Source of the DNA: Gilliamella sp. N-G2
GTDB lineage: Bacteria; Pseudomonadota; Gammaproteobacteria; Enterobacterales; Orbaceae
Direction of reading: 5' to 3'
NCBI RefSeq assembly: GCF_002142215.1
Contig: NZ_NAST01000014.1
Span: forward strand, 25,893 to 49,892
Length of the DNA: 24,000 nt
Part shown: positions 450 through 19,900 of the stretch, one piece after another
How positions within the stretch are numbered: position 1 is the stretch's first letter
Layout of the letters: each line of letters starts with the position of its first letter
Program-made: the position numbers and the translations under genes
The notes under the pieces: model-generated
What the model was told of the DNA's origin: nothing
The model's input: the letters and a program-made list of their open reading frames with translations, nothing else
The model's database searches: none

Positions 450-580
450 CCAAACAAGAGATGGAGTAACACAATGGAAAATAATAAGGAAGTGGCTATG
501 TCTGTGAATTTTTTACTCGGTTGTGGGGTAATTATACTACAGGTCAAACTCTAGTTATTGATGGTGGAATGTCTGCTTAA
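450..580 (+). pseudogene. C-terminal remnant of a short-chain dehydrogenase/reductase (SDR), 5'-truncated and frameshifted
   Basis: One frame reads ..KEVAMSVNFLLGCG and the next frame reads NYTTGQTLVIDGGMSA*. Joined, they give the canonical SDR tail (EVA..V.FL......Y.TGQ.L.VDGG). The frame switch lies in the GGGG run near 524-527. An upstream stop at 447-449 means the other ~200 codons of an SDR are absent. Confidence 0.45.
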
Positions 581-4992: not shown

Positions 4993-5650
4993 AATACACT
5001 GTATTATCGTTTATATACTACTAACTGAATATAAGATTCTTCGTTTCAGAAATATTGACCAAAGATTGCATTTGATTAATCGCAATACCATTGAGTTGTA
5101 TCAAGCGTTCGGAAGCACTTATACTTTGATGAATTAAGACTGAGTTAATACTTTGCAGATTAGATAAAACGACTAATTACTCTAATGTAGCAACATTACG
5201 TATGTTTCCTTTTTGATAAGACACTCAAAATTTAGGTTTAACTTTGATTAAAAATAATATTATTTTACTCAAAATAAGTTCTATATTTGAACGTCCAATG
5301 GGATTTTATGGAGATTTTTACCGTGTAAATATTCTTAAGAATCAATATCATATATTTAGTGACAGGTAGCTTTTATTTTTTCTGCGCTTCCGCCATTTAT
5401 TTTTATGGTAGAATCCACTGCAACGTAATAGAATCGACTAAAATCATGATAGTCATGAGGTTGCGTGTTTTTTTATTTCCACTTTTTCATTAATCTTATA
5501 CTCATCCAGAGTAATTCATTTCATCCACGCTTAAAATGTATGCCAAAACGTCCACCGAAAAATACTCTAACTGTCTTGTATTTTTTTATTAAATTGGGTT
5601 ATCTCCCTCTGCATAATTCAACGTATTATAAAAGTTTGGAGTTTGCTGAT

Positions 5651-5681
5651 GTTCCCCTAAATTTTATATTTTAGGGGGAAC
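5651..5681 (-). terminator. Hairpin 45 nt downstream of the malY stop (terminator-like, no clear U tract)
   Basis: GTTCCCCTAAA ... TTTAGGGGGAAC forms an 11-bp stem with one bulged G. It is GC-rich at the base and is the only strong hairpin after malY. No T run follows on either strand. Confidence 0.35.
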
Positions 5682-5725
5682 AATCTTTGATGCATGATTG
5701 TTTATTATATAAAAACAATTTTGTA

Positions 5726-6910: not shown

Positions 6911-6939
6911 TATCGTATTCCTGTGTGATCTAAATAATA

Positions 6940-6966
6940 GTAGTGATAAATTGACATTATCACTAC
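6940..6966 (-). other. Intercistronic hairpin between malX and malY
   Basis: Perfect 10-bp inverted repeat GTAGTGATAA / TTATCACTAC with a 7-nt loop. It lies in the 69-nt malX-malY spacer, 30 nt upstream of the malY ATG. Confidence 0.3.
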
Positions 6967-6979
6967 CTAATTTCACTAT

Positions 6980-8560
6980 TTATTGAGTCAAATATTGTTG
7001 CAATTCATCTTTAACTAACTGAACTTGTGGACCTATCACGACTTGCAAGTTATGTTCATTAAGACGAACAACTCCAATGGCTTTATTGGCTTTCAACTTC
7101 TGGTCATCAACAATGTTAATATCTTTAACTGATAAACGCAGCCGAGTAATACAGTTGTCTAAAGAAACGATGTTATCTGCACCGCCTAATGCTTCTAATA
7201 TTTGAGCTGTATTATAACCTGATTTGCTTGTGGTTGTTTGAGCATTGGTATTATTGTCGTTTTTACTTTCTACTTCTCGACCCGGTGTTTTGATATTGAA
7301 GTGTAAAATGAAGAATTTAAACACAAAGAAGTAAACCACAAACCAAACAGCTGCAATAACAGGAACCCAGTACCATTTTGTACTTGTACCATGTAAAATA
7401 CCGAATACGACAAAATCGATAATGTTACCATCAGTATTACCAATGGTAACATCAAGTAACGACATTACCATAAAGCCGATTCCTGTTAATAAAGCATGAA
7501 TCACGTATAAAACTGGGGCAATAAACAGAAACAAAAATTCTAATGGTTCAGTGATACCACCTACAGTACAGGCAACAACACCTGAAATGAGGAGCCCTTT
7601 AATTTTGCTTCTATTCTCAGGTTTAGCACAAACATACATTGCTAATGCGGCGCCAGGTAGTCCGCCTAGGAATGATGGCATTTTTCCTTGGGATAAAAAT
7701 CGCGTTGCACTTTCAGAAAACCCAGTCGTTGTTGGGCATGATAATTGAGCTTGGAAAATGGTTAGTGCGCCACTTACTGTCTCATTACAGACCTCCATAG
7801 TGCCGCCAGCATCAGTAAAACGAATCAACGCAACAAGAATATGATGCAAACCAAAAGGCAATAACAAACGTTCGCCTGTACCAAAAATAAATGGACCAAA
7901 TGCACCAGCACTATTAACAAGATAACCCAAACCACTAATAGCTTTTGCAAAAAAAGGCCACACGATAGGAACAAATAAACCTACGACGCCTAAAGTTAAC
8001 ATGGTAATAATCGGTACAAAACGATTACCACCAAAAAAAGCTAATGCATCGGGTAGACGAATTTTTCTAAAACGTTCATGTAAAAAATATACTATAATTC
8101 CTACTAAAATAGCACCTAAAATACCCGTATTAATGGATTGAATACCAAGTACAGATTGAATGTCGTTGGCTCTTAATATATTAGGATCGTTTTGAGGTAA
8201 AATACCAACTATAGTAAGGTAGAAGTTAATACTTAAGCTTAATACGGTATAACCAACAAAACCTGAAAATGCAGCAACGCCCTTATCTTCTCTAGCGAGC
8301 CCTAAAGGAATGGCAATGGCAAACATTGCAGGAAGAAAGCTAAATGAGAATGATCCTATTTTGCTCATCCAAGTAAAAATAGCAATACATACATGATTAT
8401 CTAAAAAAGGTAATAGTTCTCGAACATCTTGGCTGGCAAGTGAACTCCCTATGCCTAGCATAATTCCAGAAAAAGAAAGTAGAGCGACTGGTAACATAAA
8501 TGTTTTACCAAGGCTTTGAAAAAATTCCCAAAAAGTGACTTTGGTTGCTTTATTCGTCAT
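6980..8560 (-). CDS. malX: PTS maltose/glucose-family EIICB component MalX
   Basis: Very strong collinear similarity to E. coli MalX (VTFWEFFQSLGKTFMLPVALLSF, GERLLLPFGLHHILVALIRFTDAGGT, TIFQAQLSCPTTTGFSESATRFLSQGKMP, ITEPLEFLFLFIAPVLYVIHALLTG). The C-terminal EIIB motif is LDNCITRLRL. Confidence 0.93.
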   Translation of the reverse strand: MTNKATKVTFWEFFQSLGKTFMLPVALLSFSGIMLGIGSSLASQDVRELLPFLDNHVCIAIFTWMSKIGSFSFSFLPAMFAIAIPLGLAREDKGVAAFSGFVGYTVLSLSINFYLTIVGILPQNDPNILRANDIQSVLGIQSINTGILGAILVGIIVYFLHERFRKIRLPDALAFFGGNRFVPIITMLTLGVVGLFVPIVWPFFAKAISGLGYLVNSAGAFGPFIFGTGERLLLPFGLHHILVALIRFTDAGGTMEVCNETVSGALTIFQAQLSCPTTTGFSESATRFLSQGKMPSFLGGLPGAALAMYVCAKPENRSKIKGLLISGVVACTVGGITEPLEFLFLFIAPVLYVIHALLTGIGFMVMSLLDVTIGNTDGNIIDFVVFGILHGTSTKWYWVPVIAAVWFVVYFFVFKFFILHFNIKTPGREVESKNDNNTNAQTTTSKSGYNTAQILEALGGADNIVSLDNCITRLRLSVKDINIVDDQKLKANKAIGVVRLNEHNLQVVIGPQVQLVKDELQQYLTQ

Positions 8561-8615
8561 AATTTTACCTAAAAGTTAATTGATTCCACTTAAATTAACA
8601 TTTTCTTTACATTTA

Positions 8616-8631
8616 GGTAAAACGTTTTATC
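8616..8631. promoter_or_regulatory. Putative MalI (LacI-family) operator
   Basis: GGTAAAACGTTTTATC has a 12-bp perfect palindromic core TAAAACGTTTTA with the central CG typical of LacI/GalR operators. It lies in the divergent malX/malI intergenic region, between the CRP-like site and malX. Confidence 0.6.
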
Positions 8632-8640
8632 AACTATAAA

Positions 8641-8656
8641 TGAGATTTATGTCACA
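8641..8656. promoter_or_regulatory. Putative CRP binding site shared by the divergent malX and malI promoters
   Basis: TGAGA-tttatg-TCACA against the consensus TGTGA-N6-TCACA (9 of 10 core positions), with A/T-rich flanks. It is roughly central in the 183-nt intergenic region. Confidence 0.45.
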
Positions 8657-8743
8657 AAATTAGAAAATATATTTAACTGTAGGAAATTCAACTTAAAATG
8701 ACTAAAATAATCATCAGTTCTGAACTTAAGTGAATTTAATACG

Positions 8744-9742
8744 ATGCGGAAACCCACAATTAATGACGTAGCCAAGCATGCGAATGTTTCTGTTACTACT
8801 GTTTCACTCGCATTAAGTGGAAAAGGGCGAATATCTGATGTGACTGTTCAAAAAATTAACCAAGTAATAGAACAGCTCGGTTATGTTCGTAATAAAAATG
8901 CAGCAAGGTTACGCAGTGGTCAATCGGCAATTATCGGTGTTATTGTTCGTGATATTAGAGACGCTTTTTATGCAAGTATTATTACCGGTATCAATGAAGT
9001 TTTCTCTAAGCAAGACTATATTCTTTTTTTGTTGCAATCAGATATGACAAAAGAAGGATTATTGAAAAGCGTCAATTCACTCATTGAACAAGATGTATCA
9101 GGCATTATTTTGGGGTATAGCGGAATACTGACCTATGATATTAAGACAATAACTGATAAGCACAAAATTCCCTTAGTCATTGTTGCTCAATCAAGTAGTT
9201 TGAGTAATATCTCTCAAATTTGCTCTGATAATCGATTAGGCGCAGAGTTAGCAACGGAATACTTTATTGGCAAAGGATATCGTCAAATAGCTTACTTAGG
9301 TGGAAGAACAAATTCATTAACGCGAGCAGAACGTTTAGCTGGATTTGGTCATATTCTTGCAAAACATGGATTAAAATTTAGATCTGAATGGATAATACCT
9401 AATGAACGGCCAGAATTATTGGATGATGTTAGCTTTTTACTTAAACAGCATCCCAACGTTACCGCTTTTTTGTGTCATGATACGTCTGCAACCCTATCTT
9501 TAATTTTGAGTGCATCTAAATTCGGTCGAACAATTGGTAAAGGGGGATTAGTGAGCTATTTGGAACCACAGGTAGAAATAATGAGTTTCGCTACTCAAGC
9601 CGAAATACAGATGGCAAAAAGTTTAATCAGTTACGTTGACAATAAACCGATTGAAATTGGTCGTCAAGCCGCCTATACGTTACTGAGAAAGCAATTCACT
9701 ATCGCACAAATTATTATCTCACCCGTATTAGTTATTGATTAG
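8744..9742 (+). CDS. malI: LacI-family maltose regulon repressor MalI
   Basis: N-terminal HTH is TINDVAKHANVSVTTVSLALSGKGRIS. It shares VRNKNAARLRSGQSAIIGVIVRD and SLTRAERLAGF with E. coli MalI as I recall it. It is divergent from malXY, as in E. coli. Confidence 0.88.
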   Translation: MRKPTINDVAKHANVSVTTVSLALSGKGRISDVTVQKINQVIEQLGYVRNKNAARLRSGQSAIIGVIVRDIRDAFYASIITGINEVFSKQDYILFLLQSDMTKEGLLKSVNSLIEQDVSGIILGYSGILTYDIKTITDKHKIPLVIVAQSSSLSNISQICSDNRLGAELATEYFIGKGYRQIAYLGGRTNSLTRAERLAGFGHILAKHGLKFRSEWIIPNERPELLDDVSFLLKQHPNVTAFLCHDTSATLSLILSASKFGRTIGKGGLVSYLEPQVEIMSFATQAEIQMAKSLISYVDNKPIEIGRQAAYTLLRKQFTIAQIIISPVLVID

Positions 9743-10105
9743 TGGTTATTTTTCTCATAATTTTTTATTTGTACTTTATTATGTTCAAGTCCTATATTAT
9801 TGAAAACACAACAAGCTTGAATTCAAAAAATAAAATAAAAAAACACTTGATGCTATGAATAAATCTCCATAAGTTGTGATTATTTTTTATTCATCTTATA
9901 TTTCATTAATGTCTATTTTCTGTTTATTACCTTTGCCTGAAAGTATAACATCTTAATGTAAAATTAGTTCGCATTGTTTACAGTATTAGATGAAAATACT
10001 GTAATAAATATGCATAAAAACTCAAGATTAATACCTTATCATTGAGGTTGTTAATAATATAAATAAAAAGACGCAGATCTGATTTGGATTAAATTTCTAA
10101 TTATC

Positions 10106-10826
10106 ATGTGTGATACATTATTCGGTGGTCAACAATCGCTGATTACTATCAATATGTCTGATTACCAAGAAGCACACACTGTCTCTCAACTCAAAGGATC
10201 GCCTCATGGCTATGTCGGATATGGTCAAGATGGTGTTTTGACTGAAGCTGTCAGAAAACGGCCTTATAGTGTGGTTTTATTTGATGAAGTTGAAAAGGCA
10301 CATGGCGACGTGCTTAATTTATTCTATTAAGTTTTTGACCGTAGATTTATGCGAGATGGAGAAGGTCGAGAAATTGATTTTCTCAACACATTAATTATTA
10401 TGACGTCGAATTTGGGTAACGATGAACTTATGGCATTTTTTTGATAAATGCCTGATGCAGATCTAGCTACACTAGCATGAATTATTACGTCCAATTATTC
10501 GAGAACACTTTCAACCAGCACTACTTGCGCGTTTTCAAACTGTTATTTTCACACCGCTAGCAAACGATTCATTACGACATATTGTGAAAATGAAATTAGA
10601 CAAAGTGGCTTCACAATTATAAAAACATTATAAAATCGATTTTAATGTGGACGAACAACTCTATGATCAATTGGTTGCTGCGTGTTTATTACTAGATACT
10701 GGAGCAAGAAATATTGATAGTATTTTGAATCAACAAATTTTACTGGCGGTATCAAGCATTCTCTTGCAAAGAGATAGTCATCATCCTGATACAACACAAA
10801 CATTAATTCTCGATTTTGATAAATAA
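10106..10826 (+). pseudogene. clpV: Remnant of T6SS AAA+ ATPase ClpV/TssH (C-terminal third only, multiple disabling lesions)
   Basis: The D2-domain sequence is [62 protein letters not shown]. It continues with the ClpV-type FY(Q->TAA)VFDRRFMRDGEGREIDFLNTLIIMTSNLG. Lesions are the loss of about 600 N-terminal codons, an in-frame TAA at 10328-10330, and TGA-TAA at 10442-10447. There is also a frameshift between 10447 and 10476, and an in-frame TAA at 10620-10622. The tail still reads FQPALLARFQTVIFTPL ... LDTGARNIDSILNQQIL. Confidence 0.8.
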
Positions 10827-10966
10827 TGAAAGATAATTTACGACAATTATTAGATGAGTACGTTGAAAAAGAAGCTCAATTTAATTACGTCCATAATTTA
10901 GATCCCGATAATGCTTTTACTTTAAAAACACGAAATCAGATGTTGTGGTTTTATATAATATCATAA
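10826..10966 (+). CDS. 46-codon ORF overlapping the clpV remnant stop (TAATG); possibly the stub of the next T6SS-cluster gene
   Basis: It translates MKDNLRQLLDEYVEKEAQFNYVHNLDPDNAFTLKTRNQMLWFYIIS*. Only the coupled TAATG junction suggests an ancestral gene. I recognise no homology, and it may not be expressed. Confidence 0.2.
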   Translation: MKDNLRQLLDEYVEKEAQFNYVHNLDPDNAFTLKTRNQMLWFYIIS

Positions 10967-11186
10967 CCATGAAAAGCAAATTTATGATCAACTCTTAATT
11001 CATTCTCATTGTAATGTTATTTACTCTTCTTCTCTGTAGTATCACTTCACCATTTATTTGTAAAAATAATTGAGGGGGGTGTATACCATCACATTAATGT
11101 TTGGGGATTAATAACCTGTTCTCGTTTGTATGATTATGGATAGAGGAGTTAGCTATGCTTAAGGCTCATTCTAACTAAAAAACTAT

Positions 11187-11234
11187 TGCCTAAATAGACA
11201 TACTAATACAAAAGTATAACATCCTATTTAGGCA
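11187..11234 (-). terminator. Inverted repeat downstream of the 1104-aa gene (possible terminator)
   Basis: Perfect 11-bp arms TGCCTAAATAG / CTATTTAGGCA are separated by 26 nt, about 70 nt after the stop at 11303. On the minus strand they are followed by ATAGTTTTTT. The loop is large and the T run is offset, so confidence is low. Confidence 0.3.
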
Positions 11235-11302
11235 TTAAAGTTCATGATGCACTAGAAATAACAAAATAAATATACATTTAATAGTACTGTAACAGTCTTT
11301 GA

Positions 11303-14300
11303 TTAAAGGTTAATATTTAAATCTTCTTGCAACTGTTTTGCTTTCGCAACTGCTGTTGACTTTAATTTTGATGAAGCTATTTCATGCAGACCTTCCCATT
11401 TAGCATCTTTGATGTAACCACGCAATGCAGCTTCTTTCAAATAAGCGGAATACTGTAAAGATATATCTAAAATACGATTTGTCCAGACTGGTATTTTTTC
11501 CCCTCGACTAATTAGATTACCAACAAAACGAACACATTCAATTAAAATAGGCCAAAGTAATGGTAAAAATTTAATTTCTTTTTCTAATGACCTAATAAGT
11601 TTTGCAGGACTTACAATGGGATTTTTTAAAAATAGTAAAATTGCTCTACGAACAGTTTCTTCATCAATGTGACTTGTTAAAACATAATTTTCAGCAAAAT
11701 AGGCACCTTCGCCATCTTGAGCGAGAAGTCCAATAACAACCATCAATAAAGTATTCGATAATGCTGGTATTTTTGTACTAGACAATGGGCCATCTTCATT
11801 TTTTAACCAATTTCGATATTTGCTGACCAGTAAGGCTTTTTTATCATTATCCCAATGCAAATAAACACTTTTTTGGCTATCCGTTGTAAATTTAGGGTGT
11901 TCTATGGGGGCTGGATATGCTTGACATTGCCCTTCTTCTAAATCATAAAACCAATTTGTTTTTACTATATGAAAAACTCGGTCATTAATATCTGGTAGTT
12001 TCAATGTAAAAATGAAAGCGGAATTAGATTTGCTTTGCTCAAATAAATCAATTGAGATAATAGCGCCATCATCAAGTACCGGAATGTTTTTTTCTTTTTT
12101 AGGCCAAATTTTATCAAAATCAGTTACATTAACTTCATTAGATTTTTTTGATTTAACAAATTTAATGTCTGGTAATTGAGTAATAATATATTTTGCTACA
12201 TTGATTACTCGTGAACTGCCTGTTTTTTCAGCTAAAGTTCTCAAACCTAAAAGATCCAGTTGATTTGGCGACGCAAGTCCATTGGTAACAGCAAACTGAA
12301 CTTCGGGTAAAAATTCTGCTATAGCATTTACAATTTCATCAGTTCCCACTAGTAATCTCGGCGCTTTTAAAGAGGCTAAAATTAATTCGTCTAAAATTGG
12401 CCATACAACAGATAAAAGCCCTTGCTGAGCAATATTTGACAGCGTTGCAACTAAGCTAACTAATTTAGAAGGAGTGCTATTTATCCAGTCTAGTAAGAAA
12501 ACATCAGCAATTCCTGGTATAAGTAAACCTCTTTCCCATGCCTCATTCACGGCTAAGGCTATATCAGCTATAGCACGGGGTGATGCTGAACGCTGTGCAG
12601 CGAGAATATTCATTGCAACACCAGCAGTTAACGGTATTTGTCTCTTAGCAATTTGCCTAAAAATGAGTCCTTTTCCATGCTCCATTTCATTGAATGAGGA
12701 AACACTCAGTCGTATAGCAGCATCACCCCAGAGCGGAAACACAGAAAATGCACTAGTAGTCAAATCACCTAAAGAATCAAACCTTTTAGGAAAGTATTGT
12801 AATGATGGGGTGGTTGGAATTTTTATATCCCAAAAATATTCCTCATTATAATCTAATAAAACTTCTTTTACTGGGCAATTAAGATAAGCTAAAACTATGT
12901 CACTAGCGTTAATAGGGATTTTTTTACCTGATTGTAAAATGACATCAACCTTTAACGTTTTTAATAAGTTTAAATTTTTACTACTTTGTGTTTTGGTATC
13001 CAAACGAGTTAAAGCTAAAAATATATCTGCTTCAAGTGCATGAATTTTATTTTTCTGATATTTTTCTAGTCGCTTACAAAAATCATCTACTGTAATTGAA
13101 AGATCACTCTTACTAGGAGTTGATAAAATACAAGGCAATTGATCTAAATTTTTGCACACTACATAATTACGAGCATGCAATACTTCATGTACCATATCTT
13201 TCTGATCTGCTCCCCAATAGCCTTCAGGTTCGATTCCTTTCACCCAACAAGCAATCAAATTAAGTAGTACATCAACAGATGTTGGTTTCACCCCCGCCAA
13301 ACTTGTTCTAGCCGATTGAGGATCGTTATAAGCGATCTTATTTGCAACAGCTAGAAATCTTTCAACAACAGTATCACAAACGAACTCTCTTCGATTAACC
13401 AGTTCACTGGCAAGCTCTGTTAATGCTTGAGGTGTAACTTCTCCCCAATCAAATTGAGGGCATGTCCATAAAGATGGTGTTTTTTGCCAAAGATGTTTAA
13501 TGTCCTGTGTATGACTTTCTTCAATTTGTGCATAATTGAGTTGCCAATGGTTAGCCAATTGACGAGCTAGCTTTGCAATAGATTTATCTTTATCGTCACA
13601 CCATATCGCCAGCCATGGTGTGAGTTGCTCTACATCACTAAGGGCTTTTCTTGTCATTGCTGTTTTTAAAACTAACTGTTTTGTTGATTTAACCTTTGCG
13701 GAGAATGAAGCTATCATTACCTCATTTAAAAGTTCATCATCAACATTTTTTATCAATATAGGCGCAATTTTTGCAATTACATCTGATTCACCTTTGGCAA
13801 GTAAAGGAATCAAAACAGCTGTTCTTTCACATAACGTTGTAGTACTTATCCCTAACCCCTCTATTGCACTAACCCAAACCTTTCTATCCCCAGGTCGACT
13901 GGCAATATCTAACGCAAAAAAGATAAACTCTATTGCATCGTGTTTTGAGAGCCAACCTTGCTTAACACCTTCGATAAATACAGAAAAGAATGGTCCCGTT
14001 GCAGGTACATTGACGGCAATCCCTATTTTAATATGCTCAGAAAATCTGCGTTTTATTTGTTCTTGTGTTGGTAACTCTTGTGTCGATACTGCTCTAGAAT
14101 AATCTTCAGCAGGTAATCCCATGGACAAAGCAGCATAAACGGCCCAATCTTTCATATATTCGTAGCTTTCAGGAATAGCTAAATTTAACTGATCAACAAG
14201 TTGAACGGCAATATCACCAAATACACTTGAAGAGTGTTCAAATACTCTTCTTCTGGATACGCAAGCTTTGCTGATAAAGTTAGTCGCATATTTTTCACCT

Positions 14301-14617
14301 TTATCCTTAATAATAGGCAGTAATAAGGGCCTATCAGCAAAATAAGCAAACTCTAAAGCACGGGTGATAGAAACACCAATCCTAATAGCATACAATGTGA
14401 TATGTTTGAGATTGCATTCAATATATCCTTCATTGCTGTAATCGCTGTTTGCCTCTCTTTTAATAAGACGCTCCCAGTCTCCATTTTTTAGACCATTCAG
14501 CGCTATTTTTTGTTGTTCTTTTGTGCCTAGTGGTTGCTGTAATATGGTATCTATAGTTACTTTTTCCCATCCCAAAGAGTTAAAAATAGCAACGGCTTCT
14601 TCAAGCTTAGAGTTCAT
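11303..14617 (-). CDS. 1104-aa cytoplasmic protein of unknown function, partner of the SWIM zinc-finger protein
   Basis: Uninterrupted 3315-nt ORF. Its ATG at 14617 overlaps the upstream gene stop by 11 nt (ATGAACTCTAA). It has no signal peptide and no convincing TM helix, and I find no Walker A, helicase or kinase motif by eye. It is rich in L/I/A/E/K and looks like an extended helical scaffold. The only catalytic-looking string is HEVLH at residues 477-481. Confidence 0.85.
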   Translation of the reverse strand: MNSKLEEAVAIFNSLGWEKVTIDTILQQPLGTKEQQKIALNGLKNGDWERLIKREANSDYSNEGYIECNLKHITLYAIRIGVSITRALEFAYFADRPLLLPIIKDKGEKYATNFISKACVSRRRVFEHSSSVFGDIAVQLVDQLNLAIPESYEYMKDWAVYAALSMGLPAEDYSRAVSTQELPTQEQIKRRFSEHIKIGIAVNVPATGPFFSVFIEGVKQGWLSKHDAIEFIFFALDIASRPGDRKVWVSAIEGLGISTTTLCERTAVLIPLLAKGESDVIAKIAPILIKNVDDELLNEVMIASFSAKVKSTKQLVLKTAMTRKALSDVEQLTPWLAIWCDDKDKSIAKLARQLANHWQLNYAQIEESHTQDIKHLWQKTPSLWTCPQFDWGEVTPQALTELASELVNRREFVCDTVVERFLAVANKIAYNDPQSARTSLAGVKPTSVDVLLNLIACWVKGIEPEGYWGADQKDMVHEVLHARNYVVCKNLDQLPCILSTPSKSDLSITVDDFCKRLEKYQKNKIHALEADIFLALTRLDTKTQSSKNLNLLKTLKVDVILQSGKKIPINASDIVLAYLNCPVKEVLLDYNEEYFWDIKIPTTPSLQYFPKRFDSLGDLTTSAFSVFPLWGDAAIRLSVSSFNEMEHGKGLIFRQIAKRQIPLTAGVAMNILAAQRSASPRAIADIALAVNEAWERGLLIPGIADVFLLDWINSTPSKLVSLVATLSNIAQQGLLSVVWPILDELILASLKAPRLLVGTDEIVNAIAEFLPEVQFAVTNGLASPNQLDLLGLRTLAEKTGSSRVINVAKYIITQLPDIKFVKSKKSNEVNVTDFDKIWPKKEKNIPVLDDGAIISIDLFEQSKSNSAFIFTLKLPDINDRVFHIVKTNWFYDLEEGQCQAYPAPIEHPKFTTDSQKSVYLHWDNDKKALLVSKYRNWLKNEDGPLSSTKIPALSNTLLMVVIGLLAQDGEGAYFAENYVLTSHIDEETVRRAILLFLKNPIVSPAKLIRSLEKEIKFLPLLWPILIECVRFVGNLISRGEKIPVWTNRILDISLQYSAYLKEAALRGYIKDAKWEGLHEIASSKLKSTAVAKAKQLQEDLNINL

Positions 14618-15962
14618 AAATACCTTCCTTGATTTGTACAGCTAAAACATGCTTACAAGGGCCTTTTTTCTGTTGATTTTTAAGATACCAAGTACATGTA
14701 CATTGTGGATTGCAATTCAGTTGATTTATAGGAATAGACACACGATAACTATCATCTGTAGAATTGACTATCCATGTCATCTCATCAATTTTTTCGATCC
14801 GATCAACTAATTTATGCGCACCAATAAGACGTGGATTATCTTTTAAAACTCGGTTCGGATCTTCTGGTAATTCGCGATGAAAATAAGAACCTTCATATGC
14901 ATCAAACCCAAGTTTTCCAGAAACGGCAAGATAAGCTAGTGCGCGCTCAATGCGATAAGCCTCTAATGCAGAAGCATTTGACAATTGTTCTTTATTAATA
15001 AGCGCATCAAACTGTAAAAGATCATTCACTATTTTTGAATCTTTTTGTTCTGCTGATGAAACTAAAGATGTTAACAATGCTCCTTCACCAGAATATCCTT
15101 GCCATGTTTCAGCTGTTAAGCTGAGTGTTAAACGAGCACCCAAAAGGCTTACTTCAATCATGCATGGCCCCTGCTCGTTATTTTGCAAACAGTAAAAGGT
15201 TAAACTTTTAATATTAGTTATTAGTCGCTTAAGTGCATTGAGACGATGCAAGCCAGATATATAAACACTATGCGTATCGCTTCTAGACATTAATTTAATA
15301 CCTGAACGCGATAATACAAGCCAACCAAATTGATTTTTACTCGTTACATTAGGTAGAGTACTCACAAACATTTGTGCTTGAGGTCCTTTTATTGTAAAAA
15401 CTGGCTTCATGTTTTTATGGATTTCAGCGATATTGCCTAAAGCTCTTATCCACCGATTAGGCATTTGAACAGGCCGTTGTAAAATGATTTTATCTAACCC
15501 TTTGAGATGATTGCCTTTATCCTCTATATGCCGTGTTACTAACCCTTGATCACCTATATTTAAATGAAGTCTGTCTTTACTATTAACCTTAGCAAGAGCT
15601 TGTCTTAAACCAATACCAATATCAACATTAGTAGTACCTCGATAAATCTCTCCATCAAGGCCTTCTCTTAATAAATCTAAACGTGCATATACCCCATTAC
15701 AGGCAGAAAAACACTCTGCTCTTACACGATCACCTTGCGCTGAAAGTACCGGATCTTTTTGAAACTCAGGCTTATACTGGAAATAGTTCGTAGAAGTAAT
15801 GTCTGCTAATACAAGCAATCCTCTTGCAATAATTTGAGGATAAAGAGCAAAACCAGAAAAAAATACCGGATGATTAACAATACCTGTTGGCGTCAATGCA
15901 GGAGAAAGCGCTAAAGCTAGTGCTCCATCAGTAAAATTTGATTGCTGAAAAAAAGCTCGCAC
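14607..15962 (-). CDS. SWIM zinc-finger domain protein (451 aa), N-terminal ~400 aa uncharacterised
   Basis: GTG start at 15962 has AGGA 6 nt upstream and no in-frame ATG nearby. The C-terminus CTCTWYLKNQQKKGPCKH is a complete SWIM signature CxCx12CxH (nt 14649-14702). The rest of the protein carries no motif I recognise. Confidence 0.85.
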   Translation of the reverse strand: MRAFFQQSNFTDGALALALSPALTPTGIVNHPVFFSGFALYPQIIARGLLVLADITSTNYFQYKPEFQKDPVLSAQGDRVRAECFSACNGVYARLDLLREGLDGEIYRGTTNVDIGIGLRQALAKVNSKDRLHLNIGDQGLVTRHIEDKGNHLKGLDKIILQRPVQMPNRWIRALGNIAEIHKNMKPVFTIKGPQAQMFVSTLPNVTSKNQFGWLVLSRSGIKLMSRSDTHSVYISGLHRLNALKRLITNIKSLTFYCLQNNEQGPCMIEVSLLGARLTLSLTAETWQGYSGEGALLTSLVSSAEQKDSKIVNDLLQFDALINKEQLSNASALEAYRIERALAYLAVSGKLGFDAYEGSYFHRELPEDPNRVLKDNPRLIGAHKLVDRIEKIDEMTWIVNSTDDSYRVSIPINQLNCNPQCTCTWYLKNQQKKGPCKHVLAVQIKEGIYEL

Positions 15963-16128
15963 GTTTTTTCCTAAATAAAAAAATTAAAACAAATACTACA
16001 TATTATATCTGTTACGATTATATTGTTTATTAATAATTAGTTTATCAAAAAACACCAAAAAAGTGAGTTTTTTAATTGAGTTATTAAAATGGCAATATAA
16101 TTAAAAAATTGAATAATTATTTAATTAA

Positions 16129-16329
16129 CTAAAATCTATTTTTTTCATCGAATGTGATAACACAAGATGTTGCGGCAATTTGCTCTGCTAATAATTTAAT
16201 AAATGTCGATTTGCCAGAGCCGTTATGACCAACAATACCATAGACAAGCCCTGGTTGAAATTGAGTCGTTACATGATTAACAACAAGGGTATCTTGAATT
16301 TGGTATCCAATATCTTGAGCAATAAGCAT
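16129..16329 (-). pseudogene. ABC transporter ATP-binding protein, N-terminal 66 codons only (FepC/FecE-like iron-siderophore type)
   Basis: Reads MLIAQDIGYQI..VVNHVTTQFQPGLVYGIVGHNGSGKSTFIKLLAEQIAATSCVITFDEKN. It has Walker A (GHNGSGKST) and the beginning of the following strand, then a stop. The Q-loop, signature, Walker B and H-loop (about 190 codons) are absent, and the downstream 166 nt are AT-rich non-coding. Confidence 0.7.
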
Positions 16330-16388
16330 ACTAATTTAATTATCCATCCAATTACGCTTTAAAGTTATCCTATCTACCTATTCTGATA

Positions 16389-17603
16389 CTATTTTCCCAT
16401 TGTTCGACTTGCATAAAATGCATTTAAAAATGCCAATACTATTGAGCCGATTACAACTGGAAAATAACCAAATTTTTGTGCAAGATAATAACTTAGTGAT
16501 ATTACGATAAATCCACATATAAAACTTGGCGCTGATTGAGCATTACAAGCAGTAGAACGTGCCTGTGAACTATCTGAGTTGTCCATTATGATGGCAGTAA
16601 TCGCAATAGACATTAAAGGTAAACTAAAGAAGTAAAGAAAACAGGCTAAATAGACATTAAAAATATTAACATAACCTAACGAGATCGGGATGAATGCAAG
16701 TAAACCAAAAGCATGAAAAAGTAATGAATATGTTAAACTTTGTTTCCTAGATAATCGCTTGAGGATTTTTGCAACTAATATAACAGCCACTAAGCTAACA
16801 ATGGATCCAAATACTTTTAATAAAATAGCAATATCTGATAATGCCCAACCATCATCGACAAGTATTGGTGATAATAGATTATAAGCTGGTAAGAAACTAA
16901 ACGGCATAAGTATCAAAATAATTAACCAATTAATTCTACCTTTCCAGATGATAATCAGATCTTTCCAATATTTAGGATCCATATTTTCATATATTGGTTT
17001 ATTTTGACAGTAACGGTACTCTTCAAAAAAGAAAAGTTGAATTAATGTAAATCCAATTAAAATAGCAATTAATAATAAACAACCCATCCAACCAATATAG
17101 GCATAAAGTAGTAAAATTACTCCGCCACCTAAAATATTACCTATCATAGAACCACTGGTTTTGATACTTGAAATTAGATAACGTTGCTGAACTAAAAAAA
17201 TATTACAGGCTAATCCTGATATGGCTAATTCTTGAGTTGCAGTCATGGTCGAAAAAATAAAAATGATGGGTAAAATGATATAAAACTGTTTTATAGGATC
17301 TAACAAAGCTATAAAGATTAAGCATACTAACATTAGCGTTAAAGAGATAAATAACCAATTGCGATAATGAGATATTCGTCTTTTTAAATATTTATCAATA
17401 ACAGGTGCCCATAAAATTTTTAAACCAATTGGTAACATCATTAAAGGAATAAGACTTAATTGGTCTAACTCCATACCATCTTTTCTTAGGATTAAAGCTA
17501 AGGCGATTGTCAAAAAGCCAATACCAACATATTCTGTAATATAAAGACTTACAAATAATAACCATACATTTTTAGGTAATTTAATTGTTGCTTTGTCATT
17601 CAT
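16389..17603 (-). CDS. MFS permease of the AmpG/FptX/RhtX type (probable single-component siderophore importer)
   Basis: 404 aa with about 12 hydrophobic segments. The loop motif GLKILWAPVIDKY resembles the LKxLW(A/S)PxxD signature of the AmpG/FptX/RhtX group as I recall it. It lies immediately downstream of a TonB-dependent receptor on the same strand. The substrate assignment is by context only. Confidence 0.7.
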   Translation of the reverse strand: MNDKATIKLPKNVWLLFVSLYITEYVGIGFLTIALALILRKDGMELDQLSLIPLMMLPIGLKILWAPVIDKYLKRRISHYRNWLFISLTLMLVCLIFIALLDPIKQFYIILPIIFIFSTMTATQELAISGLACNIFLVQQRYLISSIKTSGSMIGNILGGGVILLLYAYIGWMGCLLLIAILIGFTLIQLFFFEEYRYCQNKPIYENMDPKYWKDLIIIWKGRINWLIILILMPFSFLPAYNLLSPILVDDGWALSDIAILLKVFGSIVSLVAVILVAKILKRLSRKQSLTYSLLFHAFGLLAFIPISLGYVNIFNVYLACFLYFFSLPLMSIAITAIIMDNSDSSQARSTACNAQSAPSFICGFIVISLSYYLAQKFGYFPVVIGSIVLAFLNAFYASRTMGK

Positions 17604-17725: not shown

Positions 17726-19744
17726 TCAATAGTTTATTTGTGCAGAAATACCTACTTGTCGTGGTTGCTGATAAGTGCTATATCGAGAAGATGAGGACAT
17801 AAGGCTTATTTTTTCATGCGCATTGAAAACATTATCAGCATAAAGCATGATTCGACCTTGTTTAAAGTTATAAGCTAAATAAGCATTTGCTTGGTAATAA
17901 CTATCAATTTTCGATGTCCTATTATTTGATGCATCAGTATAGTAACTATCCACAAACGATGCATTTAATCCGGTTTCCAGCCCATATGGTAGGTTATAGT
18001 AACCGCCTAGATTAAATGTATAACCAGGAGCACGCGTTAGCTTATTGCCGTTATAATTTTTACTGTCGCTGTATTTTTCTATTTTGGTTTTAAGTAAGCC
18101 CAAACCAGAGGTTAAATTTAAATTTTGTGTTGCTTGCCATTCAATATTAAATTCAGCGCCATAAGTTATAGCTTTATCGGCATTAGCAATAGTTGTTCCT
18201 AGTGGATGAGAATACTCAATTTGCATATCTTTATAGTCATTATAGAAAATATTGGTATTAACTTTTAGGCGTTTATCTTCTGAAAGCCAACGATGATAAA
18301 TCTCGTAGTTCCAAAGATATTCAGGTGAATAACTGTAGATTTTAATAGGAGATGTAAAGGTAATACCTGCACCACCAGGATTGTAACCGCGAGCAATTTT
18401 GGCACCAATTCTCTGATCATCACTGATTAAATAAGCAATATCAAATTTTGGTAAGAAAACATCTGTTTTACTCTGATAATTTAAAACATAGTTACTACCG
18501 CCGTTGCGAGTATGTTTTTCTTGTTCATAACGAGCAGACAGATTTACTTCGATAATATCTATTGGTTTAAAGGTAAATTCCCCTAAAACCGCTTTAGTGT
18601 TTGTAACGTCATGATAAAGGTTGCGAACCCCTAATAAAATACTGTCATCTTGTGGTGCCTTTAAATAAAATAGACCCAATAAACCTTTATATGAACCATC
18701 GTTGTATCTTAAAATTGGCTGAACTTGCCACTGATGACCTTCCACTCTTGATGGTGCGCCAGAAGGTAGCGAAAAACGGTCACGAATATAATTAGAATAA
18801 ACAGTTTTATTTTCAAATTCCCATGTATCATTAAATTGATAACCTGCATCCCATATTGTGCTCGAAGTACGAGTTTTATGAACCGGACGATATGTATCAC
18901 GAATAATTGTTGGTTTAAATTCACCTTGAGGATTTCGTGAATCTACATGTTTAAAGGTCAAACGACTATAAAAATCGGGTACAGCCGAAGGTAACCAAAG
19001 TAATTTAGCATTAGTTGTGGTGGCTTTAAACTTCCTTGAATCTCCTGCTGGATGATAATTTGCTATATGTTCGTACGACTTGCGACCTTTCTGATCAACC
19101 GTAAAGCGAAAAAGTAATTGCTCATCAATTAATGGACCAGATAGCATTGCGGCTAATTGGCGTTTATTTTGATTACCATAGTCCGCTTTAGCGGCTGCCT
19201 CAAATTTATTGATGGGATCGTTACTCTGCATAACTATAGCGCCAGCTATAGAATTACGGCCTTGAGAATAACTCTGTGGCCCACGGTAAACTTCGACTTG
19301 TTTAATATCCCAAAGTGATTTTGTGCCAAATGCTAATTCATAATAATTCGATGAATCACCATCAACCTGAATATTAACTCTAGGACGAACGCCGGCTAAA
19401 AAGGACACTGCACCATGAGCTGAAGTACCCTCTACGCCGCGAATTGTGGGTACATCATTACCTAATCCTGTATCTAACACATTTGATGTTTGTTTCAGTA
19501 CATTTAGTAGAGAATAAAAATCGGGACGTCTTTCGATATCCTTATTGGTTATAACACTTAAACTTGAACTAGTTTGTAATTCACTACGTTGTACCCCTTC
19601 ACCAGTAACAGTAATTGTCTCCAATTTATCTTTTTCATTATCTTCCTTGATATCTTTAATTTTATTTTCAGCTAGAACAATAGAGCTATAACAGCTTATA
19701 AGGCACAAGCTAAATAAACTAAATTTTGCAGTTATTTTTTTCAT
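17726..19744 (-). CDS. TonB-dependent outer-membrane siderophore receptor
   Basis: From ATG 19744 the protein has a signal peptide (MKKITAKFSLFSLCLISCYSSIVLA). It then has a TonB-box-like ETITVTG and plug motifs (IRGVEG.., VEVYRGPQS). A long beta-barrel follows, with a terminal aromatic residue (..GISAQINY). The TTG-started 22-codon extension in the track would run through the Fur box, so I reject it. Confidence 0.9.
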   Translation of the reverse strand: MKKITAKFSLFSLCLISCYSSIVLAENKIKDIKEDNEKDKLETITVTGEGVQRSELQTSSSLSVITNKDIERRPDFYSLLNVLKQTSNVLDTGLGNDVPTIRGVEGTSAHGAVSFLAGVRPRVNIQVDGDSSNYYELAFGTKSLWDIKQVEVYRGPQSYSQGRNSIAGAIVMQSNDPINKFEAAAKADYGNQNKRQLAAMLSGPLIDEQLLFRFTVDQKGRKSYEHIANYHPAGDSRKFKATTTNAKLLWLPSAVPDFYSRLTFKHVDSRNPQGEFKPTIIRDTYRPVHKTRTSSTIWDAGYQFNDTWEFENKTVYSNYIRDRFSLPSGAPSRVEGHQWQVQPILRYNDGSYKGLLGLFYLKAPQDDSILLGVRNLYHDVTNTKAVLGEFTFKPIDIIEVNLSARYEQEKHTRNGGSNYVLNYQSKTDVFLPKFDIAYLISDDQRIGAKIARGYNPGGAGITFTSPIKIYSYSPEYLWNYEIYHRWLSEDKRLKVNTNIFYNDYKDMQIEYSHPLGTTIANADKAITYGAEFNIEWQATQNLNLTSGLGLLKTKIEKYSDSKNYNGNKLTRAPGYTFNLGGYYNLPYGLETGLNASFVDSYYTDASNNRTSKIDSYYQANAYLAYNFKQGRIMLYADNVFNAHEKISLMSSSSRYSTYQQPRQVGISAQINY

Positions 19745-19761
19745 CCGAACACGCCATAATT

Positions 19762-19780
19762 GATAATGATTTTCATTTGC
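19762..19780. promoter_or_regulatory. Fur box upstream of the TonB-dependent receptor
   Basis: GATAATGATTTTCATTTGC matches the consensus GATAATGATAATCATTATC at 15 of 19 positions. It lies 18-36 nt upstream of the receptor ATG. Confidence 0.6.
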
Positions 19781-19900
19781 AATAATATAGATTGGAAAAT
19801 AAGCTGTCAAATTACTGTTTAAAAAAAATCAATATTATTAAATTAACTTGATTTTATTCAGAAGGAATAACTAAAATTTATAATCAAGTTAAATGATATA

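Follow-up and report, generated by a model that had tools for sequence, protein, structure and literature searches.

Type XIII retrons carry an accessory SWIM zinc-finger protein that Mestre et al. (PMC7736814) proposed to be a MULE/IS256-like DDE transposase. In their cluster 114_1 the acidic residues follow the spacing Dx7Dx4Ex30D (the 'DEDE' motif), and a DprA-type winged helix was predicted in the same protein. These retrons are described as largely vertically inherited, and some retrons perhaps have non-defence roles (PMC7736814). No experimentally assigned function for type XIII retrons was found in the literature searched. Two further arrangements bring a SWIM protein together with very large proteins. 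One is the pairing with DUF6493 proteins, defined by NCBI/Pfam annotation only (DUF6493, PF20103; DUF7824, PF25148; DUF7825, PF25149), and DUF6493 is not mentioned in the literature searched. The other is the E. coli yeh locus, which encodes YehL (MoxR ATPase), YehM, YehP (VWA), YehQ (SWIM) and YehI (DUF4132).

In the bee-gut bacterium Gilliamella apis, two tightly coupled genes encode a zinc-finger protein (named gene 1) and an 1104-residue helical scaffold (named gene 2). All positions refer to the window, the whole 24,000-nt stretch of DNA analysed (Table 1). On re-reading the sequence, both reading frames, their 11-nt overlap, the AGGA site and the SWIM signature were found exactly where a preliminary description had placed them. 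Gene 1 stops at 14609-14607, within the opening codons of gene 2 (ATG 14617-14615), and its GTG start is backed by aligned homologues that begin MR(A/T)F. The candidate promoter falls within an upstream segment of ~110 nt that every G. apis strain has next to the pair, the conserved block ending at 16073. The two genes are co-transcribed and probably translationally coupled, as described before, and the close spacing kept across phyla agrees with this reading of an uncharacterised module.

Table 1 Features of the two-gene locus in window coordinates.
Feature	Position	Strand	Basis
Gene 1 (SWIM protein)	14607..15962	(-)	451 aa, GTG start; ORF
Gene 2 (large protein)	11303..14617	(-)	1104 aa, ATG start; ORF
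Stop/start overlap, 11 nt, ATGAACTCTAA	14607..14617	(-)	read from sequence
Gene 2 ribosome-binding site GGAAGG (Shine-Dalgarno)	14623..14628	(-)	5 nt before ATG; inside gene 1 end
Gene 1 ribosome-binding site AGGA	15969..15972	(-)	6-nt spacer to GTG 15962
Candidate sigma-70 promoter TAAACA-16-TATAAT	16002..16029	(-)	consensus match only, 10/12 positions; overall site count not above shuffles
Predicted clamp-fold domain 1, aa 1-137	15552..15962	(-)	AF2 secondary structure; Foldseek PDB; BFVD
Low-confidence inter-domain linker, aa 138-168	15459..15551	(-)	AF2 model; alignment
Predicted clamp-fold domain 2, aa 169-290	15093..15458	(-)	AF2 model; Foldseek PDB; BFVD
Helical / winged-helix-like domain, aa 300-365	14868..15065	(-)	AF2 secondary structure
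C-terminal SWIM zinc finger, aa 389-445	14628..14798	(-)	Pfam PF04434 above threshold; invariant ligands
Gene 2 N-terminal half, aa 43-557, homologous to DUF6493 + DUF7824	12947..14491	(-)	hhalign
Most conserved shared motif P-C-x-L-S-T-P-S-x2-D-L-S-I, aa 495-508	13094..13135	(-)	invariant / near-invariant columns
Small beta-sandwich insert, aa 853-932, in gene 2 C-terminal module	11822..12061	(-)	AF2 strands
C-terminal helical module, aa 955-1100	11318..11755	(-)	AF2 model

The AF2 model of gene 1 (pLDDT 78.8, pTM 0.81) enabled us to compare its fold with known structures. A Foldseek search against the PDB returned 243 matches at E<=1e-3, the top 50 being all PCNA or 9-1-1 subunits, with ~280 aligned columns, E~1e-7 and probability 1.00 against the clamps. 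The target TM-score was ~0.6 for PCNA matches and 0.38-0.48 for 9-1-1 subunits. PCNAs, beta-clamps and a herpes processivity factor were also retrieved from BFVD, an independent viral-structure library. The segment between the two domains has pLDDT below 50 at residues 139-164, varies in length with insertions in the homologue alignment, and occupies the position of the inter-domain connecting loop of PCNA. The N-terminal ~290 residues are thus predicted, on the strength of the model, to form a two-domain clamp subunit of PCNA/9-1-1 type with a flexible linker in between. Pfam gave no sequence-level likeness to clamps, no internal duplication was detectable, and no earlier report of this predicted architecture was found in the literature searched. 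The winged-helix-like domain is modelled as helices 303-315, 324-331 and 335-347 and strands 351-354 and 359-362, and FHRELPxDPxRVLKDNPRL (aa 361-379) comes next, a segment invariant in the homologue alignment. At the C-terminus, where PF04434 had been expected, residues 406-442 scored 24.3 bits against a gathering threshold of 19.6. The motif C421-x-C423-x12-C436-x-H438 (CxCx12CxH, nt 14649-14702) keeps all four ligand residues invariant in 39 homologues.

The ~400 residues before the finger were at first thought to match nothing, a view replaced by the predicted clamp and winged helix and by a match to the PADLOC model of the type XIII retron accessory protein, SWIM_XIII (E=4.8e-42). All 39 of the 39 gene 1 family members match this model. 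Clamp-fold domain 1 holds the invariant acidic set D70-x7-D78-x4-E83-x30-D114, whose spacing is exactly that of the 'DEDE' motif in cluster 114_1, and the DprA-type winged helix predicted by Mestre et al. stands at a position matching that of gene 1 (PMC7736814). Judged by these sequence matches, gene 1 is a homologue of the type XIII retron accessory SWIM protein. At the pair locus Rfam gave no match even at E<=1, and the genes that recur beside the pair, in loci surveyed from several phyla, include no reverse transcriptase (RT).

Gene 2 is modelled mostly as an alpha-helical solenoid (pLDDT 85) with generic HEAT/ARM fold matches only. Neither profile searches nor the fold search found a recognisable enzyme domain in it, in line with the helical scaffold of the preliminary description. 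It is no orphan, as had been supposed: more than 365 homologues and 546 representative clusters were found, and relatives that match over the full length (31–50% identity) come from Pseudomonadota, Bacillota, Actinomycetota, Spirochaetes and further phyla. The family alignment matches that of DUF6493 in hhalign (probability 95.5%, E=1.3e-8, 498 columns), and DUF7824 is matched in 41 of 42 family members; in gene 2 itself the stretch 489-555 reaches 23.5 bits, below the Pfam threshold of 27.5 bits. No Pfam match to DUF6493 or DUF7825 was detectable. The most conserved motif corresponds to the 'LPLLSTPTH' core of DUF7824 and aligns with DUF6493 proteins, and directly after the more distant SWIM homologues comes a gene annotated "DUF6493 family". 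These results bear out the suggested link between SWIM proteins and giants of the DUF6493/DUF7824 type, and the alignments place gene 2 as a divergent relative of this group, with which such SWIM proteins are usually paired. Further downstream, the beta-sandwich is built of strands 853-862, 865-873, 880-885, 897-904, 918-923 and 928-932 in the AF2 model, and the C-terminal 285 residues (aa 820-1104) have no Pfam match. A tail of ~290 residues, which includes the C-terminal helical module, is optional: family members of ~800 aa lack it, the short forms covering profile positions 1-812 (for example at loci L080 and L081). The HExxH sequence (H477-E-V-L-H481), suggested earlier as a mutation target, is not kept in the family consensus, which marks it as a chance match.

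A gene 1 homologue lies directly upstream of a gene 2 homologue in ~65 of ~70 informative loci from at least five phyla. Of the 72 junctions measured, 33 are overlaps of 1-17 nt, and 50 in all have either an overlap or a gap of <=10 nt. The distance matrices of the two proteins correlate with r=0.96, and no third gene recurs in the flanks of the surveyed loci. The gene 1 protein is unusually well conserved across phyla (43-65% identity). The dN/dS of the pair is 0.12-0.26, compared with 0-0.09 for neighbouring genes; the pair is functional, with purifying selection on both genes that is looser than on the neighbours. The pairing exceeds chance, because gene order and tight spacing repeat in ~65 loci from several phyla and both genes are under purifying selection. 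Collectively, the pair is a self-contained two-gene module. Its distribution across phyla is patchy, with only 113 confirmed loci among 185,579 species genomes for the search patterns used, and tandem paralogue expansions occur at some loci.

Whether the pair varies between strains had been asked; every G. apis strain examined has it, at one and the same site. The block conserved among them reaches ~110 nt beyond gene 1 on its upstream side and ~300-370 nt past the end of gene 2. Between Gilliamella species the flanks differ and are unrelated, and the pairs of other species (49% and 63% identity) are as distant from that of G. apis as those of termite-gut Betaproteobacteria. The surrounding region shows in part the decay described before, with ClpB-type AAA+ pseudogene fragments downstream and a deletion scar upstream, but the pair itself is intact. 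No terminal inverted repeats surround it. The flanking genes are mostly housekeeping, and known defence genes adjoin the pair in only a minority of 25 surveyed loci; neighbours at some loci include AAA_14/DUF4143 (PDC-S01), GmrSD/SspE-like and HEC-06 genes. A sister subfamily is found on plasmids, in one case beside an integrase and a VapC/Phd toxin-antitoxin pair. Of the earlier suggestion of a horizontally acquired conflict module, horizontal spread and a possible conflict role stay plausible, while the defence-island context is weak.

We tentatively favour, at somewhat less than an even chance for the explanation as a whole, a co-translated DNA-binding subunit and solenoid that most likely serve in conflict. 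The two proteins would form a stoichiometric complex, in which the clamp, winged helix and SWIM finger of gene 1 would recognise a DNA structure. The candidate ligands are a DNA end, a replication intermediate or a junction of single- and double-stranded DNA, which would put them in one class with the ligand that type XIII retrons obtain from msDNA. The solenoid would be the effector arm: it may wrap or sequester DNA or replisome proteins, or it may bring in a host enzyme. As the biological role, defence against phages, plasmids or other mobile elements seems most likely, and the pair may be a retron-independent relative of the module recruited by type XIII retrons.

Several observations were counted against a conflict role. 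Neither protein has a recognisable effector domain, profile and fold searches having detected nothing of nuclease, NADase, protease, membrane or ATPase type; the flanks are mostly housekeeping and the site is fixed in all examined G. apis strains; and type XIII retrons are largely vertically inherited, with possible non-defence roles (PMC7736814). Also weighing against the explanation as a whole, the complex and its DNA binding are inferred and the clamp assignment comes from a predicted structure.

An accessory factor of DNA metabolism, outside immunity, is an unlikely alternative that still deserves weight. A clamp-like protein and a HEAT-type scaffold would then act in repair, replication restart or chromosome organisation, with possible eukaryotic parallels in 9-1-1, FANCI/FANCD2 and the condensin HEAT subunits. 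The clamp fold suits such a role, as do the weak matches of the solenoid to condensin, CAND1 and FANCI-type repeats, the lack of a toxin-like effector domain, the presence in all G. apis strains examined, the housekeeping flanks and the conservation of the SWIM protein across phyla. The rare and patchy distribution does not, nor do the context that varies even inside the genus Gilliamella, the plasmid-borne sister subfamily, the paralogue expansions and the homology of gene 1 to a retron accessory protein. Less probable again is a substrate receptor or adaptor made of SWIM finger and solenoid, by analogy with eukaryotic ZSWIM8 or CAND1-like HEAT proteins, which would regulate the stability or assembly of other proteins without acting on DNA. 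In its favour, SWIM domains are able to bind other proteins, gene 2 finds its best fold matches, weak as they are, in CAND1, karyopherins and the PP2A-A subunit, and the helices of the predicted clamp in gene 1 show no marked basic character. However, a clamp fold and a winged helix are typical nucleic-acid modules, the retron XIII link implies a nucleic-acid ligand, and no proteolysis or ubiquitin-like genes lie near the pair in the loci surveyed.

We give little credence to gene 1 as a domesticated MULE/IS256-like DDE ('DEDE') transposase in a module that cuts or transposes DNA. Although its acidic spacing is present and invariant and MuDR-type transposases likewise have C-terminal SWIM fingers, the acidic residues sit in a predicted PCNA-type clamp domain instead of an RNase H-like core, and the top PDB and BFVD matches are all clamps. 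The fifth motif position (x37-E) is not kept in the gene 1 family, Pfam and NCBIfam gave no transposase family match, and the pair has no flanking terminal inverted repeats. Fainter still is the prospect that the pair is the remnant of a type XIII retron that has lost its RT and ncRNA. The SWIM_XIII match and the deletions and pseudogenes nearby would fit, but neither gene is broken and purifying selection acts on both, gene 2 is not of the retron XIII WGR type, and RT does not recur in the surveyed flanks; the conserved G. apis block ends so close to the pair that it leaves no room for an RT. Equally remote is the view of the preliminary description that the pair is a pared-down yehLMPQ-type MoxR/VWA/SWIM/DUF4132 system. 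Both encode a SWIM-finger protein alongside very large helical proteins with no assigned function, but the gene 1 family aligns with YehQ over the 33-residue zinc-finger motif only (hhalign probability 1.4%), the gene 2 family has no similarity to YehI (DUF4132) or YehM in profile comparison, and MoxR or VWA genes do not recur beside the pair in the surveyed loci.

Compared with known systems, the pair shares with the yeh locus a SWIM-finger protein near giant uncharacterised proteins, whereas it has no ATPase or VWA partner, and the SWIM motif is N-terminal in YehQ and C-terminal in gene 1, so that the domain order differs. As in sliding clamps (PCNA, Rad9-Hus1-Rad1, bacterial beta-clamp, viral processivity factors), two clamp-type domains are predicted in gene 1. 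However, the identity is only 8-14% in structural alignments, Pfam gives no clamp match, the clamp region shares its polypeptide with a winged helix and a SWIM finger, and the gene stands with a solenoid partner and not with replication genes; the likeness to ring clamps is one of predicted fold only. The SWIM + DUF6493 pairs have the same gene order and stop/start overlap. Their SWIM proteins are homologous to gene 1 over its full length (27-35% identity, query residues 27-444), and their large proteins are homologous to gene 2 in the N-terminal half, including the LSTP motif; gene 2 is longer (1104 versus 860-980 aa), and its C-terminal ~550 aa with the beta-sandwich lie outside the alignment. 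The accessory protein of type XIII retrons has the CxCx12CxH finger, the acidic-motif spacing and the winged-helix place in common with gene 1, and likewise has a very large protein of alpha-helical repeats as its partner. In contrast to these retrons, this locus and the homologous loci examined have neither RT nor msr/msd ncRNA, and gene 2, of DUF6493/DUF7824 lineage, has no match to the partner model WGR_XIII, so the parallel runs through gene 1 only. In conclusion, the locus is probably a DNA-directed conflict module of unproven function, a retron-independent variant of an uncharacterised pairing between a SWIM protein and a helical giant.

The gene for the 451-aa SWIM protein (gene 1) and that for the 1104-aa large protein (gene 2) are tightly coupled, and the coupling is conserved. 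The gene 1 stop codon (14609-14607) lies inside the first codons of gene 2 (ATG at 14617-14615), giving an 11-nt overlap, ATGAACTCTAA, and a GGAAGG ribosome-binding site is located 5 nt upstream of the gene 2 ATG. The GTG start of gene 1, preceded by AGGA at a distance of 6 nt, is supported by its homologues, which begin with MR(A/T)F. These reading frames and their overlap agree with the preliminary description of this DNA, made from the sequence alone, which also anticipated the SWIM domain PF04434 in the 451-aa protein; the signature is present where it was described, and the Pfam match lies above threshold (24.3 vs. 19.6 bits).

Coordinates of the gene pair, of features in its two products and of surrounding elements
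Feature	Protein or strand	Residues (aa)	Window position (nt)	Source
Gene 1 (SWIM protein, 451 aa, GTG start)	minus strand		14607-15962	
Alpha/beta domains	gene 1 product	1-137, 169-290		AlphaFold2 model
Low-confidence linker of variable length, between the two alpha/beta domains	gene 1 product	139-164		AlphaFold2 model
Conserved loop WQGYSGEGALL	gene 1 product	286-297	~15072-15107	
Helical/winged-helix unit	gene 1 product	300-365		AlphaFold2 model
SWIM finger	gene 1 product	389-445		AlphaFold2 model
SWIM signature C421-x-C423-x12-C436-x-H438	gene 1 product	421-438	14649-14702	
Gene 2 (large protein, 1104 aa, ATG start)	minus strand		11303-14617	
Small N-terminal hairpin	gene 2 product			AlphaFold2 model
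HExxH motif	gene 2 product	477-481		
Partial DUF7824 match	gene 2 product	489-555		Pfam
Beta-sandwich	gene 2 product	853-932		AlphaFold2 model
C-terminal helical module	gene 2 product			AlphaFold2 model
137-aa ORF	minus strand		3423-3836	
Block absent from G. apis strain NO3			5184-10995	locus L006
Gap with only ClpB-type fragments			9742-11303	
Frameshifted ClpB/ClpV-type AAA+ pieces	plus strand		10106-10823	
Block that moves with the pair			~10933/10996-16073	
5' remnant of ABC-ATPase gene	minus strand		16074-16388	vs. locus L087 (11215-18072)
TonB-dependent receptor gene			17817-19577 (in ORF 17726-19810)	

The four SWIM ligands are invariant across 39 homologues of the gene 1 product. The protein matches SWIM_XIII, the PADLOC model for a type XIII retron accessory protein, with E=4.8e-42, and so do 39 of the 39 family members. 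It further carries an acidic set, D70-x7-D78-x4-E83-x30-D114, whose residues are invariant or nearly so. The accessory protein was described by Mestre et al. 2020 (PMC7736814) as cluster 114_1, with a 'DEDE' motif (Dx7[D]x4Ex30-32Dx37E), a DprA-type winged helix and a C-terminal CxCx12CxH SWIM finger, encoded usually beside a WGR/HEAT-ARM repeat protein. The last glutamate of the DEDE motif is not conserved in the gene 1 family.

An AlphaFold2 model of the gene 1 product, built on 39 homologues (pLDDT 78.8, pTM 0.81), predicts a clamp/winged-helix/SWIM architecture. Foldseek returned 243 matches to the PDB at E<=1e-3, and the best 50 were all PCNA or 9-1-1 clamp subunits (E ~1e-7, probability 1.00, ~280 aligned columns), with a target TM-score of ~0.6 for PCNA. 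Viral PCNAs, phage beta-clamps and a herpesvirus processivity factor were matched in an independent library, BFVD. At the sequence level, hhalign of the two clamp domains against each other was not significant, no PCNA_N/C, DNA_pol3_beta or Rad1/Rad9/Hus1 match appeared in Pfam/NCBIfam at E<=1, and no sequence relative was found among PDB chains. From the structural matches, the N-terminal two-thirds of the protein, a region read as transposase-derived by Mestre et al., is predicted to be a PCNA-like two-domain clamp subunit and not a transposase remnant. In the conserved loop at aa 286-297, G289, S291, G292, E293 and G294 are invariant and residues 293-298 have pLDDT <50, making this flexible segment a candidate contact site for a partner or ligand.

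The gene 2 product is an alpha-solenoid in its AlphaFold2 model (pLDDT 85, pTM 0.60) and has no recognisable catalytic domain; no enzyme domain was detected by Pfam, NCBIfam or PADLOC. Structure prediction and Foldseek, proposed in the preliminary description for both proteins, yielded a predicted clamp fold for one and a solenoid for the other. The whole-chain Foldseek matches of the solenoid are weak and generic HEAT/ARM ones only (CAND1, Kap121, PP2A-A and condensin; E ~2e-3, TM-score ~0.1), and PDB chains hold no sequence relative of it. The HExxH motif, singled out earlier for mutation, is not conserved in the family, and a metalloprotease was rejected on that ground. Shorter forms of ~800 aa, without the last ~290 residues, also occur. 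Loci L080 and L081 and many profile-search matches encode members of ~800-860 aa that span profile positions 1-812 only, without the beta-sandwich or the helical module at the C-terminus, so that the last ~290 aa constitute an optional module.

The sole Pfam signal in the large protein is a partial, sub-threshold DUF7824 match (23.5 vs. 27.5 bits; profile positions 125-192 of 246). The same match is common to 41 of 42 family members, with a best E of 7.8e-8, and none of the 42 matches the Pfam DUF6493 or DUF7825 models, which together with DUF7824 make up the canonical architecture of DUF6493 proteins. An hhalign comparison of the large-protein family with a 27-member DUF6493 alignment gave a probability of 95.5% and E=1.3e-8 over 498 columns, pairing gene 2 aa 43-557 with DUF6493-family positions 31-637, and a motif, LP(C/L)LSTP(S/T)...I...L..R, is common to both. 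SWIM proteins that are more distantly homologous, at 27-35% identity across residues 27-444, are encoded on plasmids of Streptomyces, Diaphorobacter, Asticcacaulis and Chondrinema, each gene being followed, with a 4-nt overlap, by one annotated 'DUF6493 family protein'. Collectively, the DUF7824 signal, the DUF6493-paired SWIM homologues and the profile alignment place the large protein on a longer and divergent branch within the DUF6493/DUF7824 lineage. An association of SWIM proteins with this lineage, mentioned in the preliminary description, is thereby supported.

The large protein, first taken for an orphan, has hundreds of homologues: more than 365 in a word-indexed search, and 546 clusters at E<=1e-3 (289 at E<=1e-30) when a profile was run exhaustively against 1.84 billion representatives. 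Full-length relatives with 31-50% identity are found in other Gilliamella species, in termite-gut Beta- and Deltaproteobacteria, Spirochaetes, Chitinispirillales and Deferribacteraceae, in oral Lachnospiraceae (Lachnoanaerobaculum, Johnsonella, Oribacterium, Catonella and Shuttleworthella), in Filifactor, and in Actinomycetes (Cellulomonas, Rhodococcus, Agromyces, Isoptericola and Propionibacteriaceae). Three close homologues (P0001, P0019 and P0021) bear doubtful public names ('FimB/Mfa2 family fimbrial subunit', 'CsrA' and 'PRTRC system protein E') that look like annotation errors.

Adjacency was surveyed by tblastn in 85 loci, roughly 70 of them with upstream sequence, and a SWIM homologue lies directly 5' of the large gene in ~65 of these ~70. 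Of 72 junctions measured, 50 have the two genes within <=10 nt of each other, including 33 overlaps of 1-17 nt, and where a junction is much wider it seems to have received an insertion. Correlated distance matrices (r=0.96, Mantel p<=0.001) show that the two proteins are co-inherited, and the SWIM protein is the better conserved (mean distance 0.45 vs. 0.58). Departures from the simple pair were also observed. The termite-gut Micrococcales MAG Th196P3bin61 (L074/L082/L076/L079) shows a local expansion of the large-protein family, with several tandem paralogues, as many as four on one contig and most of them without an adjoining SWIM gene. Locus L028 has two tandem SWIM paralogues (6523-7797 and 8656-9996) upstream of one large gene, and L054 has a second, more divergent SWIM homologue (16136-17359, 35% identity) ~3 kb downstream of the pair.

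Clustering of the flanking ORFs revealed no further recurrent gene beyond closely related genera. A Pfam and PADLOC scan of the nearest neighbours (145 ORFs from 25 loci) found mostly housekeeping genes, with a minority of defence type: AAA_14/DUF4143 (= PDC-S01) in 5, GmrSD/SspE-like in 3 and HEC-06 in 3. The defence-island context raised in the preliminary description is weak. Plasmids gave no tblastn match for gene 2, and no gene 1 homologue was found in phage genomes; a SWIM-bearing sister subfamily is plasmid-borne, in one case beside an integrase and a toxin-antitoxin pair. The proteins of Gilliamella apis share 49% and 63% identity with those of other Gilliamella species, which makes them as distant from these as from those of termite-gut Betaproteobacteria, and the flanks are unrelated between Gilliamella species. 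This distance and the unrelated flanks point to a horizontal spread.

The nearest proteins to both gene products are those of G. apis, a honey-bee gut symbiont (95-99% identity). The pair is flanked by ordinary genes for HlyD/MFS efflux, an AraC regulator, an aminotransferase, PTS EIIBC and LacI, and further by an MFS transporter, a TonB-dependent receptor and an Asp-Al_Ex permease. Just downstream is a pseudogene of ClpB/ClpV-type pieces (AAA_2, E=9e-27 and 1.5e-5; ClpB_D2-small, E=4e-5). The ABC-ATPase remnant, with its Walker A motif GHNGSGKST, is in the 427-nt spacer that precedes gene 1. Between the MFS gene and the SWIM gene, most G. apis strains have a ~6.6 kb siderophore-uptake cluster (ABC ATPase, Peripla_BP_2, FecCD permease, TonB receptor and a 195-aa protein) that is absent from the present strain and ESL0177. 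Downstream of the pair, strain NO3 lacks the block that carries the ClpB fragments and the genes for the aminotransferase, PTS EIIBC and LacI, so the DNA on either side of the pair is prone to recombination or indels. The TonB-dependent receptor gene listed in the table, present here and in L094 and L007 and reduced to 57-67-aa ORF remnants in L087, L088 and L092, is a second strain-variable indel of the same siderophore/NRPS neighbourhood. The 137-aa ORF has weak sub-threshold ACPS and 4PPT_N matches and may be a truncated PPTase gene.

Within these surroundings the pair moves as one block, with ~110 nt upstream and 300-370 nt downstream. It was found in every G. apis strain examined, with the SWIM gene shortened to 285 aa in one strain (L086). 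Within G. apis, dN/dS is 0.12-0.26 in the SWIM gene, ~0.19 in the large gene and 0-0.09 in neighbouring genes, so both genes of the pair are under purifying selection that is looser than that on their neighbours, and the pair is therefore functional and not decaying. The idea of a decaying accessory region holds for the gene fragments alongside and fails for the pair itself. Between G. apis strains the pair (10996-16073) has ~96% DNA identity and a dS of 0.05-0.13, compared with 99% and ~0.01 for the adjoining MFS and aminotransferase genes, which suggests that the block had allelic exchange or a history different from that of its flanks.

The two products may form a stoichiometric complex, in which the clamp/winged-helix/SWIM subunit would recognise a DNA structure and the solenoid would serve as effector or scaffold arm. 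Clamps and 9-1-1 recognise primer-template junctions, and by analogy the ligand in type XIII retrons could be the msDNA. A role in conflict or defence, as proposed in the preliminary description, is the most likely one because gene 1 is homologous to a retron accessory protein, the distribution is patchy across phyla with varying contexts, the sister subfamily is carried on plasmids, in one case with an integrase and toxin-antitoxin genes, and defence genes are occasional neighbours of a pair whose constraint is relaxed but genuine. This case is not a strong one: there is no effector domain, the neighbours are mostly housekeeping genes, and the pair, which is fixed in G. apis, is missing from phage genomes, as gene 2 is from plasmids. 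An accessory role in DNA metabolism is the main rival to conflict or defence.

Lesser rivals are that the pair is a protein-directed scaffold, that gene 1 is a domesticated transposase, an explanation contradicted by the predicted clamp fold, or that the pair is a retron remnant. For the last, no RVT-family match was found among the main ORFs of the window and no reverse transcriptase (RT) among the recurrent flank genes of homologous loci; the one RT in the surveyed loci, of group II intron type, lies ~5 kb away in L004. Rfam gave no match in the window at its gathering thresholds, nor within 10800-16450 when the cutoff was relaxed to E<=1, a weaker test than that for the RT, and the upstream intergenic RNA has no unusual structure (fold z=-0.67). 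A retron in the window is ruled out by these results, and a remnant is contradicted by the comparative data and by selection. A more specific form of the defence reading, which we consider rather unlikely, is that the pair is a new DNA-clamp-based immune sensor. Its PCNA/9-1-1-like subunit, attached to the winged helix and the SWIM finger, would cap or load on an invader-specific DNA structure and, together with the giant HEAT-like partner, would block replication with no need of an enzyme as classical effector. On this view type XIII retrons would be derived, with msDNA as the guarded ligand of the same clamp-fold protein.

The pair is already visible in databases, where NCBI annotates related proteins as 'SWIM zinc finger family protein' or 'DUF6493 family protein', and since 2020 the SWIM protein has been on record as an accessory of type XIII retrons. 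The literature that we searched gave no functional study of type XIII accessory proteins, no assigned function for SWIM or DUF6493 relatives, no link of a clamp fold with retron XIII, SWIM or DUF6493 proteins, and nothing relevant on DUF6493/DUF7824, on retrons with PCNA or on PCNA-like proteins in anti-phage roles. What is new is the ~1100-aa family as a divergent, RT-independent branch of the SWIM-DUF6493 pair in gut, oral and soil bacteria, together with the predicted PCNA-like clamp. A SWIM-type accessory also exists far from any RT, strictly coupled to a giant helical partner, in several phyla. With the clamp prediction, the working hypothesis for all of these proteins, those of retron XIII and of the annotated SWIM-DUF6493 pairs among them, moves from a nuclease or transposase to a DNA-structure-binding clamp with a scaffold. 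Should the pair be a defence system, it would lack an obvious enzymatic effector; otherwise it would be a rare case of bacteria using the PCNA-like fold for something other than replication.

The pair had been read as a minimal form of the E. coli yeh system, in which a SWIM protein accompanies MoxR, VWA and DUF4132 proteins. That reading is not supported: for the locus of E. coli K-12, hhalign aligned only the 33-residue zinc finger with YehQ, where it is N-terminal (probability 1.4%), the large-protein family gave 0.6% and 0.1% with YehI (DUF4132) and YehM, and no MoxR or VWA genes were found in the flanks. No Yeh protein matches a PADLOC model, and ARMADA, a methyltransferase/helicase defence system, is unrelated. 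Among known anti-phage systems (PADLOC-DB v2) only gene 1 has a match, to SWIM_XIII, and the large protein has none at E<=1, including WGR_XIII, the model for the second type XIII accessory protein; WGR_XIII matches 1 of 27 DUF6493 proteins (E=0.007). Gene 1 has the two clamp-fold domains per subunit of the sliding-clamp (PCNA/beta-clamp) family in its predicted structure, but no sequence-level similarity to clamps. Type XIII, which ranks among the commoner and most widespread retron types, differs in the RT (RT clade 10) beside the accessory genes, in the msr-msd ncRNA next to the RT and in the WGR-like and HEAT/ARM partner (cluster 216), whereas its accessory shares the DEDE motif, the winged helix and the C-terminal SWIM finger with gene 1, the D70/D78/E83/D114 spacing being exact. 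The SWIM-DUF6493 gene pair differs in having DUF6493, DUF7824 and DUF7825 above threshold, but the same clamp/winged-helix/SWIM-type gene lies directly upstream of, and coupled to, a large gene to which that of the window is remotely homologous.
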